From Escherichia coli (GTDB lineage: Bacteria > Pseudomonadota > Gammaproteobacteria > Enterobacterales > Enterobacteriaceae), in the NCBI RefSeq assembly GCF_003334815.1, contig NZ_QOWO01000019.1: a DNA stretch of 64,000 nt; one strand, 5' to 3'. Positions 38,901 through 41,900 of this stretch are shown here, one piece after another. Position numbers: made by a program. The stretch's first letter is position 1, and each line of letters begins with the position of its first letter.

Positions 38901-41900
38901 GGGAGTTACTCTGAAAATGTAGAAAAGGCTGCGTTTGCCTTTTTCTGTTTCTATAGAATCAAGTAGCCTACAGGGCGGCGATTACCAGGCTATGATCAAA
39001 TCAGCAAATCAGGGCGTCTGGACATCAGTTGACGTGCTGTTACAATCGCCCACACCTAAACAGGCGGATACGGTATCGTTCCGTCATGGATGGCAAACTG
39101 CATAAGCCATAAAAAAACAGGGAGACATTTATGAAGCTTCGCCTGTCGGCGCTTGCTCTGGGAACTACGCTTCTGGTGGGGTGTGCGAGTTCCGGTACAG
39201 ATCAGCAAGGGCGTTCTGACCCGTTAGAAGGGTTCAACCGCACCATGTACAACTTCAACTTCAATGTATTAGACCCGTATATTGTTCGACCGGTCGCTGT
39301 CGCCTGGCGTGATTATGTTCCGCAACCGGCGCGTAACGGTTTGAGCAACTTTACTGGCAACCTTGAAGAACCTGCGGTGATGGTTAACTACTTCTTGCAG
39401 GGCGACCCTTATCAGGGGATGGTCCACTTTACCCGCTTTTTCCTGAACACCATTTTGGGGATGGGCGGTTTTATTGATGTTGCAGGGATGGCGAACCCGA
39501 AACTGCAACGGACTGAACCTCACCGCTTCGGTAGTACGCTTGGTCATTATGGCGTGGGTTATGGGCCTTACGTTCAGTTACCGTTCTACGGTAGCTTCAC
39601 GCTGCGTGATGACGGTGGTGATATGGCGGATGGTCTTTACCCGGTTCTTTCCTGGCTGACCTGGCCGATGTCTGTGGGTAAATGGACGCTTGAAGGGATC
39701 GAAACCCGCGCTCAGCTGCTGGATTCCGATGGTCTGCTGCGTCAGTCGTCCGATCCTTATATTATGGTGCGCGAAGCGTACTTCCAGCGTCATGATTTCA
39801 TCGCTAATGGCGGCGAACTCAAACCGCAGGAAAATCCGAACGCACAAGCGATTCAGGATGATTTAAAAGATATTGATTCTGAATAAGAAACAAATAAAAA
39901 AGGTGAGTCGCAAAACTCACCTTTTTTGTTGTTATCCCTCAATTACCACAAGTAAAAGGAGATAAACCGACAATGACCTAGACGTAATTATGTAAAAATA
40001 CTGATGTTCGTCACTGACTATTTCCGATATTCAGCTGTTGAAAAATCAAAAAACTGGAAAAATAATTTTAAATATCATCAAAATTAACACCTGGCGCAGA
40101 TGGTTGATTAATTTCATTTTGATATTCAGCCTGGCGATTTTGAAGCCTTTCTTCAATTTTACCTTCGAGATCCTTAAAATGCTTATATATTTTTTGAGAA
40201 TGGCCAACGTTAATTTTGTTACCGACTAAAGTAGAAACTATTTCTTTTAGATGGTCGCATTTATATTTTGCATCGTCCACTTGAAAATCATATCTTATTG
40301 CTCGACCATAACGTTTAAAAACGTCGTTTGGTTCTCTCAGTCTTTCCCCGTTGAGCTCGTTTACAACCTGATGATCGGAACCAGTTGCAAATGATTCTGC
40401 CATGATAGCTTTACTGCTTTCAAACCACGCTGAAGCACTCCTGGCGTTTTCACTACAATATTGGGTGAGACTATCACCATTAATACGAATTCCTCTTTGA
40501 ATGTGGTAGTCGTCCTGATCGTAGTAACCGAGAGATAAGTAATCATTTCCGTTTTTATTTTTAATTACAATAGCGAGAGAGTCGCCTTTTTTATCTTTAC
40601 CGTACCAGGTAAATAAGTCCGTTGGTTCGCTTTTCCCGCTCTCATCAAATTCCGTTACCGTATGTCTGAGTTTGTGTGATATCTTATCGAAGATAAAACC
40701 AGGATCTCCATCATATATTTCTTTTAATGCGCTGAAGATCATTTCCTTGTTATTGATATCATGAGTCTTCTCAACTATGTTGTCATTAATGATAGTACGG
40801 ACGAGTTCTTTGTCTTTATAGTTCGCAGGTAATTCTATTGGTTCTTGGTTGTCGATACCAATAGTAATATGGTCTGTATCATTGGAGTCAATATCAATAT
40901 AAGTAACTGAGGAATTATTAATATTAAATCTATAAGGATCGTCGTTTACTCGTATGGCGTTTTTTATAAGCTCAAGTAGATGTTTAATACAGGTGCTTAT
41001 TCCTTCCTTACCATTAAAAAGGTTTTTGAACTCTTGTACTAATCCATTAACTTCATCATTGTTATTTTCATTGATGGATTCTGGGTAAGCTGCGCTGGTA
41101 TTGTTGATTGAAATAGATGGTAGCATGATTTTATTCCATTTTGATTGATTTGTTACAAATATATATTACCTAATGAAATAGACTATCAAAAAACGCTCAT
41201 TTATTTAGAACCTATCTTTAATTTGAGTGTATGAGCGCACAATAGCCAGGGGGGGGGAGTATCCTGGAAATGCAGAAAAGTAAACTCTTTGAGAAGGACG
41301 AGCAGAACGCCTGAAAATATGCCTTTCCCTTCAGGTTTGTCTGTGGATACCGCTTATTGATTTGAAAGGGCAAGCTGCCAACAGGCTGTTTGCAAAACTC
41401 AGGAGGTAAGCAATGAGGACACTACTTTCGGTGAAGTGGGGGAGTTAAAGTCACCTGCTATGCAGGTGACTTTATCCAGGCGAACGCGTTATCAGAACGC
41501 GTAGTTAAAGTTAGTACCGAACAGCCAGGCTTTACCTTCAGACTCGAACTGGTATGGGCCTTCGTTAATTTTCACGCTCTGACCGTGCATATAAGAAACA
41601 CCAACGTCGACTGAAGCATCTTTATTAAATGCGTAAGTCGTACCTGCACTCAGCCAGAAACGGTCCTGGTCCGGAATGGAGATAGAACGATTCTGTGCAG
41701 GAACTGGGCTGTCATCAAAGGCGATACCGGTACGGAAGGTCCAGTTATCATCGTAGTAATAAGTGGTACCCAACGCGATGCGGTAAGCATCTTTAAAGCC
41801 TTCATGTTTCTGGAACAGCGTGTCGCCACTGGTTGAGGTCGCTTTCAGCTGCTGGAACTGACTCCAGCTGGTGTAAGCCAGGCTATAGTGAATCGCCCAC

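Follow-up and report, generated by a model that had tools for sequence, protein, structure and literature searches.

Does the run of nine guanines that lies upstream of yfdF in Escherichia coli act as a switch for this gene, or is it a repeat that evolves on its own account? In the DNA that was analysed, a 64-kb stretch here called the window, positions 41249-41257 read GGGGGGGGG in the context ccaGGGGGGGGGagtatcctgg, and the tract (C9 on the yfdF strand) comes within 123 nt of the yfdF start codon (A of the ATG at 41126), close to the 120 nt or so of the original prediction. The MG1655 reference NC_000913.3 carries the same C9 at 2,462,881-2,462,889, also 123 nt before yfdF. The reading that we prefer, with a probability of roughly three in four, is that this tract is a mononucleotide microsatellite which evolves neutrally within the non-coding part of the yfdF/icaT islet, and on this reading it is not a demonstrated phase-variation switch. 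The sole role shown here for the tract, which is length-polymorphic across E. coli, is to serve, in some strains, as a landing site of ISEc20, an element of the IS110 family.

Tracts of this kind had been described as uncommon in E. coli intergenic DNA, and run counts bear this out. The G9 tract is the sole G/C run of at least 7 nt in the window, and E. coli has far fewer long G/C runs than its base composition would give: across 214 kb of K-12-type DNA, runs of exactly 5, 6, 7, 8 and 9 nt number 87, 13, 1, 0 and 1, with 255, 65, 17, 4.3 and 1.1 expected. Each added base makes such runs about 7-13-fold fewer in this DNA, so that roughly one G9 is to be expected per genome. The inverted repeat CCAGG/CCTGG on either side of the tract is present as reported and corresponds to two Dcm CCWGG sites; a hairpin formed from it was considered and rejected, since it does not exceed shuffled sequence in stability (z -0.55 and -0.93 for the DNA fold). 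An Rfam scan of 39800-43800 at permissive thresholds returned a chance miRNA match only, and a scan for promoters and terminators gave no more than chance would, and nothing at the tract itself. The tract overlaps no conserved ORF, RNA family, significant structure or defined regulatory element, as is expected of a microsatellite.

The surroundings of the tract are those of a horizontally acquired, H-NS-silenced islet of about 1.55 kb (39929..41479), which comprises yfdF and both of its flanks, the tract included. The islet is missing from phylogroup B2 genomes, where mlaA and fadL share one terminator; the 6-bp sequence TTATCC occurs at both of its junctions, and no terminal inverted repeats were found in it. 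The gene itself, yfdF or icaT (40068..41126, minus strand), is AT-rich and H-NS-silenced and encodes a Shigella T3SS substrate of 352 aa, in which a Pfam search found no domain; among the GTDB species representatives there were neither matches to the tract flanks nor relatives of YfdF. No stretch of the locus is better conserved than the proximal upstream region of yfdF (41127..41248, minus strand; 25-29% GC), part of an AT-rich block of H-NS type that ends exactly at the tract. As the tract marks the end of this block, and as conservation is unusually high over the 120 nt from there to the ATG, the tract might conceivably have a structural or boundary role. On the other side, the distal intergenic DNA (41258..41445), with an ordinary GC content of 46-50%, holds neither a conserved ORF nor an Rfam match and extends to a perfect 13-bp hairpin, TAAAGTCACCTGC / GCAGGTGACTTTA (41446..41474), which is terminator-like but has a tail of 3 T only. 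This hairpin lies just downstream of the fadL CDS (41492..42838, minus strand), the upstream neighbour, which is transcribed towards the tract. A published 'promoter island' near yfdF (PMC3661553) was set aside as well, since it is reckoned to lie at the 3' end of the gene, given a coordinate offset between genome versions, and not at the tract.

The length of the tract was compared across E. coli genomes, as the original prediction had proposed, and proved to be anything but invariant. Alleles run from G7 to G12, together with the interrupted forms G8TG, G6TTG, GGGAGGTTG and GGGTGGTTTG; all lengths from 7 to 12 occur, with neither bimodality nor periodicity, and an otherwise identical 421-nt background carries G8, G9, G10 and G12. 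In 106 metagenome contigs the uninterrupted alleles are G9 (23 contigs), G8 (10), G10 (6) and G7 (1), the TG-ended ones G8TG (16), G9TG (2), G7TG (2) and G6TG (2), and the other interrupted ones G6TTG (8), G5TTG (6), GGGTGGTTTG (17) and GGGAGGTTG (9). The full-flank set (n=104) joins metagenome contigs with six complete-genome loci and the window; a 370-nt flank identical to that of the window is found in 40 of its members, which carry G9 (19), G8 (10), G6TTG (8), G10 (2) and G12 (1). Complete genomes with the exact allele number about 900 for G9, 290 for G8 and 135 for G10 after subtraction of 85 IS-bearing genomes, and G11 and G12 were confirmed there by direct reading of the locus. The G/T-rich interrupted alleles GGGTGGTTTG and GGGAGGTTG belong to the basal phylogroups D/F and to a haplotype that includes an O145:NM strain, GGGTGGTTTG being the ancestral-type allele in IAI39, CE10 and ST648; the A/B1-type haplotype shows G6TTG, G7TG, G8TG and G9, and the canonical S. 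flexneri genome has G6TTG. A pair of serotype O121 strains with G10 and G11 differs at 36 of 3,423 sites, which makes the comparison uninformative, and the 'DH5alpha' assembly CP026085 (G8), taken up as a K-12 derivative, proved not to be K-12 and was discarded.

The tract differs in 25 of 66 pairs of loci whose mean divergence is 0.10%, which amounts to about 470 times the rate of change of an average linked site; this figure is built on non-independent pairwise comparisons and blurred by recombination. At flank divergences of 0.05-0.2%, the tract differs in 25 of 54 pairs with runs of at least 8 and in none of four with runs of 5-7. Below 1% divergence no differences are seen for alleles that have 3 as their longest G run, and GGGTGGTTTG and GGGAGGTTG are invariant within haplotypes. 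Instability that rises with the uninterrupted run, together with stable interrupted alleles, is the behaviour of a microsatellite. The E. coli indel rate is known to rise exponentially with run length, and the tRNA-Leu genes of MMR-defective lines gather 23-29 indels per 8-bp G.C run (PMC8510543). Among indel targets long G.C runs rank first (PMC8510543), and in this the yfdF tract resembles these runs; unlike it, the tRNA-Leu runs lie in essential genes, where selection keeps them invariant, whereas the yfdF tract is unconstrained, so that its variants persist. On the preferred reading the tract started, in phylogroups A/B1, from a G/T-rich sequence; in the A/B1-type haplotype T-to-G changes lengthened the runs, and from about 8 G onwards single-G gains and losses produced G7 to G12, presumably by replication slippage that mismatch repair mostly corrects.

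The tract does not appear to be hypervariable within clones, and close relatives carry the same allele. It differs in none of the 21 contig pairs that are less than 0.05% diverged, independent assemblies agree for E. coli W (G8 in 4/4) and for ATCC 8739 (G10 in 3/3), sibling isolates have a common allele, and alleles cluster with SNP-defined clades; they are thus heritable and track phylogeny, as microsatellite alleles should. Slippage, as originally proposed, is supported by the single-base length steps between strains and by the unusually long G run. The phase-variable expression that was expected to follow from it finds no such backing, as neither the near-identical pairs nor the concordant W and ATCC 8739 replicates give any sign of rapid switching.

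Whether tract length could matter to yfdF depends on where its promoter lies. H-NS silences the gene, its activation requires MxiE/IpgC, which ordinary E. coli lacks, and the function of the yfdF/icaT MxiE box has been demonstrated (PMC9769918, PMC9241512); MxiE activation of yfdF has been reported both in S. flexneri and in MG1655. In the window, the box TGAGCGTTTTTTGATAG (41183..41199, minus strand) is identical to the functional S. flexneri box and starts 73 nt from the yfdF ATG. A search with the MxiE consensus at up to 3 mismatches gave no match because the yfdF box has 4, and the exact published box was then found. Published MxiE boxes occupy -49..-33, fragments from -57 to +11 are enough for regulated activity at other MxiE promoters, and in a published lacZ-promoter swap the yfdF sequence was joined 28 nt before the ATG. 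From the box and this fusion point we infer a transcription start at about 41150-41155, and the end of the core promoter would occupy 41150..41168 (minus strand), with an AT-rich -10-like TAATATATATT at 41168-41158. The locus thus has the 17-bp MxiE box of MxiE-regulated promoters (the Shigella T3SS late-effector type) and a putative -10 element after it, with the tract outside this promoter, 49 nt upstream of the box. Taken together, the box position and the probable start put the tract at about -95 to -107, which, on published data, is essentially outside both the minimal MxiE promoter and the leader. It had been assigned to the presumptive promoter or 5' leader, an assignment that this placement contradicts; a promoter downstream of the tract, which the original prediction had named as evidence against itself, is essentially what the published data imply. 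The tract lies neither inside an ORF nor in a -35/-10 spacer nor at a fixed spacing from an activator, the placements at which length bears on expression, and since it is some 50 bp upstream of the MxiE box, its length probably has little effect on yfdF.

Other readings of the tract can be weighed against this background. Slippage could alter the spacing or helical phase between the MxiE core promoter and an upstream site or the edge of an H-NS filament, which would make the tract a phase-variable or 'rheostat' element. Length polymorphism exists, the tract borders the AT-rich block, and both published yfdF reporter constructs span it, so that its share is inseparable there. However, minimal MxiE promoters end well short of the tract, no regulator site is known at or upstream of it, its lengths form an unbroken series without two favoured states or a helical period, it appears stable within clones, and yfdF is silent without MxiE/IpgC. 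The activation seen in S. flexneri (G6TTG as read from the canonical genome, not from the tested strains) and in MG1655 (G9) also counts against such an element, even if the comparison is uninformative on spacing, the two alleles being equal in length. Position, apparent clone stability and yfdF biology together argue against a switch, which we consider improbable. Somewhat less probable still is that length variation is an artefact of sequencing or assembly at a difficult homopolymer. The K-12 reference and at least six other K-12 assemblies have G9, yet G8 is the sole indel in 18.5 kb for MG1655 CP025268 and NEB10-beta, and NEB Turbo matches a G8 query exactly; miscalls may account for some of the +/-1 differences between long-read assemblies. 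Against a general artefact, alleles follow phylogeny, the W and ATCC 8739 assemblies are concordant and siblings share alleles; a miscall of +/-1 can explain neither length differences of 2-3 nt nor alleles of the substitution type, and metagenome contigs at 42-174x coverage carry different alleles.

We see little prospect for a C-rich, rut-like segment, in which the C9 on fadL read-through RNA could load Rho and aid termination before yfdF. The plus-strand GC skew of +0.24 to +0.32 across 41200-41500 does make minus-strand RNA C-rich and G-poor, and the hairpin downstream of fadL has a weak U tail only; but ancestral alleles lack the C run at a locus that is otherwise the same, and the reading is inferential throughout. 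Hardly any weight can be given to a small protein-coding gene whose reading frame the tract would shift. A 51-codon TTG ORF on the minus strand (41373..41218) and a 14-codon ATG ORF on the plus strand (from 41270) do lie at or next to the tract, but many haplotypes shorten the former to 33 codons, about half of the haplotypes lack the ATG of the latter, and tract lengths are not multiples of three.

Fully compatible with the neutral microsatellite that we prefer is a role as an attachment site for ISEc20. This element sits inside the tract in L127, with the junctions ...tagccaGGGGGG|IS|GGGGagtatcc, and in 85 complete genomes, which may stem from a single event. About 20 independent ISEc20 sites, drawn from 24 distinct flank strings of which some represent alleles of a single site, are all bordered by G5-8 at one end of the element and by G3-6 at the opposite end; beyond this they share nothing. 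The empty forms of five other sites are G-rich too: G11 at the CFT073-type site, GGGGGGAGGGG at the focB site, which is unoccupied in about 4270 genomes, and G7-G13, G7-G10 and G4AGG to G9AG at three prophage sites. This IS110-family element thus appears to recognise G-rich homopolymer-like tracts, although the central A of the focB target is missing from the occupied allele. The window allele GGGGGGGGGAG is the only near-match in 64 kb to the resulting motif of about G6-N-G4, from which it departs by one mismatch, and the window contains no IS copy. Alleles of about G10-11 would create the target, of which G9 falls one position short, and we think it likely that these long alleles match the G-rich target of ISEc20 and serve as its attachment site. 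The broader view, that rare long poly-G tracts are natural ISEc20 attachment sites which slippage opens at lengths from about G10-11 upwards and closes in alleles that are interrupted or no longer than G9, we favour by a narrow margin. The transposase has the DEDD domains of the IS110 family, and its 231-nt leader is non-coding, structured (z -2.1) and carries GGGGGGUG and UGCCCC, identical to the left junction and to the end of the IS. Target choice is presumed, from family membership, to be guided by a bridge RNA, of which the leader is suggestive; an Rfam search of ISEc20 gave no family match. Once inserted at the yfdF site, ISEc20 lies some 100 bp upstream of a promoter under T3SS regulation, and its transposase is oriented towards that promoter. 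A literature search returned nothing on the tract, on mutations between fadL and yfdF or on the target choice of ISEc20.

The locus offers a clean natural case of how a microsatellite is born and drifts in E. coli, and a caution that a conspicuous homopolymer near a gene start does not by itself make a phase-variation switch. In practice, the tract is a fast-evolving marker for telling apart close A/B1 lineages and a trouble spot for homopolymer calling in K-12 long-read assemblies. The side observation on ISEc20 may outweigh the result on yfdF: if confirmed, its preference defines a natural target for programmable recombinases of the IS110 class and would mean that repeat slippage can gate the insertion sites of mobile elements.

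Contingency loci with promoter repeats are familiar from Neisseria (porA, opc, fetA, nadA), Haemophilus (hif) and Bordetella pertussis (fim), where the tract lies between -35 and -10 or at a set distance from an activator site and switches at about 1e-5 to 1e-2 per generation. The yfdF tract shares with them a homopolymer of at least 9 G/C close to the start of a gene, above the threshold of about 8 for a simple repeat of this class, and single-base length steps between strains, here from G7 to G12 on the same flank haplotype. Unlike them, it belongs to a silenced gene, is some 50 bp further upstream than the activator box, appears stable within clones and changes at around 1e-7 per generation, a crude figure that combines the pairwise rate estimate with the textbook E. 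coli substitution rate. Closer in geometry is the T-tract 'rheostat' of the Helicobacter pylori sabA promoter, also a homopolymer upstream of a core promoter whose length could change DNA phasing; the sabA tract, however, abuts the -35 element and its effect has been measured, whereas the yfdF tract is distal. Polymorphic non-coding mononucleotide repeats of E. coli have reportedly been used for strain typing (by Gur-Arie et al. in 2000 and Diamant et al. in 2004), and the yfdF tract is like them in being intergenic, strain-variable and phylogenetically informative, and differs in standing at the extreme of G/C run length. Site-specific elements of the IS110 family include IS621, which inserts in REP sequences, and IS4321/IS5075, which insert in Tn21-type inverted repeats, and bridge-RNA-guided recombination is known from the family. 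ISEc20 resembles these elements in its DEDD domains, the lack of obvious inverted repeats, its structured non-coding leader and its insertion at one motif across many unrelated loci. In contrast to their targets, its motif is a homopolymer-like, G-rich stretch of about 10-12 nt; as such a target is a repeat of variable length, slippage can both create and destroy it.

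Nine consecutive Gs lie at window 41249-41257 (sequence context ccaGGGGGGGGGagtatcctgg), 123-131 nt upstream of the yfdF ATG and read as C9 on the yfdF strand, in agreement with the original prediction of a G9 tract about 120 nt 5' of the start codon, and an identical C9 is present in the MG1655 reference at 2,462,881-2,462,889. Its neighbours are yfdF (40068-41126) and fadL (41492-42838), both on the minus strand, together with mlaA (39131-39886, plus strand). The tract is the only G/C run of at least 7 nt in the 64 kb of the window. K-12-type DNA totalling 214 kb holds 87, 13, 1, 0 and 1 G/C runs of 5, 6, 7, 8 and 9 nt, against 255, 65, 17, 4.3 and 1.1 expected from base composition; as the observed counts fall below the prediction, such runs are strongly depleted, and a G9 is truly exceptional, as had been supposed for E. 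coli. The CCAGG/CCTGG inverted repeat said to flank the tract is also there, and its folding is not better than that of shuffled sequence. It represents two Dcm methylation sites (41246-41250 and 41264-41268), the former overlapping the beginning of the G run.

Comparison of tract length across E. coli genomes, the check proposed originally, revealed G8, G9, G10, G11 and G12 as well as interrupted forms. In an alignment of seven genomes, G8, G9, G10 and G12 occur on an otherwise identical 421-nt background, and G9TG, G5TTG and GGGTGGTTTG on more diverged ones. Exact-match counts among 5,426 complete genomes are 987 for G9, 375 for G8 and 221 for G10; each includes 85 genomes with an insertion sequence in the tract, so that the corrected numbers are about 900, 290 and 135. 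The G11 and G12 alleles were confirmed by direct reading of loci. Among 106 metagenome-contig loci, G9 (23), GGGTGGTTTG (17), G8TG (16), G8 (10), GGGAGGTTG (9), G6TTG (8), G10 (6) and G5TTG (6) were accompanied by several rarer forms. Complete flanks were available for 104 sequences, from metagenome contigs, six loci of complete genomes and the window itself; 40 of them are identical to the window over 370 nt of flank, and yet they carry five alleles: G9 in 19, G8 in 10, G6TTG in 8, G10 in 2 and G12 in 1. Nearby A/T runs of 6-7 nt are almost monomorphic, with a few length variants in two intergenic A runs; these, A7 at 39111-39117 and A6 at 40048-40053, each occur as A6, A7 and A8 in metagenome contigs.

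Tract alleles track SNP-defined clusters, G8 is found in 4/4 W-lineage and G10 in 3/3 ATCC 8739 assemblies, sibling isolates are concordant, and different alleles occur in metagenome contigs covered 42-174x; the clusters, the replicate agreement and the coverage argue against an artefact. One caveat concerns K-12 itself, where the reference and six other assemblies have G9, G8 is the sole indel within 18.5 kb in MG1655 CP025268 and NEB10-beta, and the G8 query had a match in NEB Turbo as well; G8 in CP025268 and the NEB strains could be either a miscall or a laboratory variant. The RefSeq record NZ_CP026085.1, labelled "DH5alpha" (4.83 Mb), has another prophage at argW and other alleles, which rule it out as a K-12 strain at this locus, and it seems to be mislabelled. 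The window differs from MG1655 in lacking a 10.2-kb prophage segment from torI to intS (region 36419-37829), which we take to be CPS-53/KpLE1; it adjoins tRNA-Arg(CCT) at 37755-37829, and its flanks meet at a 16-nt overlap (37754-37769). Otherwise the window resembles K-12, differing by 3 SNPs over 18.5 kb, one of them at mlaA position 39635 (C vs T).

The interrupted alleles suggest how the tract arose. GGGTGGTTTG is carried by IAI39, CE10 and ST648, presumably phylogroup D/F, and GGGAGGTTG by a second diverged haplotype, assigned to phylogroup E type on the sole ground that it includes an O145:NM strain. The canonical S. flexneri genome has G6TTG; a second record under that species name has G9. 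Since the intermediates G6TTG, G7TG, G8TG and G9/G10 all exist, some sharing one flank haplotype, T-to-G changes lengthened a G/T-rich sequence in the A/B1-type lineage into a homopolymer, which then started to slip. Read from the alleles in this way, the history of the tract is ordinary microsatellite birth. Several further long poly-G tracts of E. coli accessory DNA, in a CFT073-type island near an AlpA-like gene (L132-L134) and at prophage loci (L165-L314), likewise vary in length (G7-G13) and follow the same route of growth from G/T-rich sequence, e.g., G6TTGTT to G11.

In about 85 complete genomes, noticed through matches ending inside the tract, the tract is occupied by ISEc20, a 1.45-kb IS110-family element, with the junctions ...tagccaGGGGGG|TGCCCC...GTAAC|GGGGagtatcc (locus L127, 2546-4004). 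ISEc20 occurs in 1,463 genomes, and 34 copies read at both ends gave 24 distinct flank strings, or about 20 independent sites. At all sites read, one side has G5-8 and the other G3-6, the DNA further out being unrelated, and the flanking Gs are part of the target, not of ISEc20. Unoccupied forms read at five other sites are G11, G11TGTT and G6TTGTT at a CFT073-type site, GGGGGGAGGGG inside focB (about 4,270 genomes), and, at three prophage sites, G7-G13 (terminase), G7-G10 (tail fibre) and GGGGAGG to G9AG (holin). Together, the G-flanked insertions and G-rich empty sites indicate that the target of ISEc20 is a G-rich tract some 10-12 nt long (approximately G6-N-G4), itself polymorphic in length. 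The G9-A-G of the window, unoccupied, has one mismatch to this pattern and is its sole near-match in 64 kb. The intact focB target is G6-A-G4 (L164), whereas in the occupied allele (L153/L163), G6|IS|G4, the central A is gone and the right-hand Gs follow a C; a plasmid variant (L131) has an A at the position of the missing one and other terminal bases. The transposase has IS110 DEDD and Transposase_20 domains. Its 231-nt non-coding leader (L128, 1323-1553, minus strand) is structured (z -2.1), with two domains of stem-loops, and within it are GGGGGGUG, equal to the left insertion junction, and UGCCCC, equal to the end of the IS. This leader, for which Rfam gave no match, may be a guide (bridge) RNA. 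The papers searched contained no account of ISEc20 target choice.

The gene downstream is annotated in RefSeq as YfdF or, in some strains, "invasion chromosome antigen IcaT". Two papers (PMC9241512, PMC9769918) show that it is rich in AT, was acquired horizontally and is kept silent by H-NS in E. coli as well as Shigella, that MxiE/IpgC activate it via a 17-bp MxiE box, that the type III apparatus of Shigella secretes its product, and that phylogroups A, B1, D and E have the gene and B2 lacks it. This absence was confirmed, as B2 genomes match the region only as far as 12 nt beyond the stop codon of fadL; they lack a 1.55-kb islet (about 39929-41479) that includes the tract, and mlaA and fadL there have one terminator in common. 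TTATCC borders the islet on both sides (39929-39940 and 41470-41479, ttgTTATCCctc ... cttTTATCCagg), the empty B2 site being cTTATTAag, and may be an old target duplication; a search for terminal inverted repeats of the islet found none. A Pfam search of YfdF gave no domain, and no relatives were found among GTDB species representatives. The gene is highly polymorphic (proteins P0001-P0120; loci L005 and L006): many E. coli and Shigella have variants of 399-430 aa with 65-93% identity to the K-12 protein over only 74-81% of the length, the 5' part and promoter being conserved and the 3' part replaced. In strain MSI001 (NZ_CP076645.1, L117; tract G12), yfdF is disrupted by an IS1 right at its start codon.

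The validated yfdF MxiE box, TGAGCGTTTTTTGATAG, begins 73 nt from the start codon (PMC9769918, Table S2) and has an exact match at 41183-41199 on the minus strand. MxiE promoters have the box at -49 to -33, and fragments from -57 to +11 suffice for regulated activity (PMC3299695), a spacing that places the yfdF transcription start near 41150; in a lacZ-promoter replacement primer the junction with icaT lies 28 nt upstream of the ATG (PMC9241512), at about 41154. The tract is 49 nt upstream of the box and would be at about -95 to -107, outside the leader and the core promoter, and not in the promoter or 5' leader as first presumed. Both published yfdF reporters started at the fadL stop codon and therefore contained the tract, whose share is inseparable in them from that of the rest of the region.

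What, then, might the tract do? No conserved ORF runs across it, and neither an RNA family or significant structure overlapping it nor a promoter-like site depending on it was found. An AT-rich block (25-35% GC) stops exactly at the tract, GC returning to 46-50% beyond, and the most conserved part of the locus, by a measure partly biased by locus selection, is the 120 nt between tract and ATG; both leave room for some role. We regard a rheostat tuning yfdF as very improbable. MxiE/IpgC activation of yfdF is reported in both S. flexneri and MG1655; the canonical S. flexneri genome read here has G6TTG and MG1655 has G9. These alleles are equal in total length, so this activation does not bear on spacing. 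A hairpin just after fadL (41446-41474; 13 bp, perfectly paired, loop of 3 nt) is followed by only three Ts, and downstream of it the minus-strand RNA is rich in C; termination of fadL may be weak or assisted by Rho. That C-rich fadL read-through RNA loads Rho at the tract itself is less probable still than a rheostat. The best reading, to which we give a probability of about 0.75, is a neutral microsatellite. As such it is of a known kind, and the connection with ISEc20 is the part worth following up.

Of the original prediction, the observation and the length variation stand; phase-variable yfdF expression is unsupported by the position of the tract, the biology of the gene and stability within clones. 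The tract differs in 0 of 21 contig pairs with less than 0.05% site divergence over at least 3 kb and in about half of those at 0.05-0.2%, where the difference depends on run length (25/54 pairs with runs of at least 8, 0/4 with runs of 5-7); interrupted alleles do not vary within haplotypes. A Poisson correction, with pairs non-independent and recombination ignored, puts the tract at about 470 changes for each one at an average linked site. Scaled by the textbook substitution rate of E. coli, this gives a crude estimate of the order of 1e-7 changes per generation, and the rates of classical contingency loci are far above this value.
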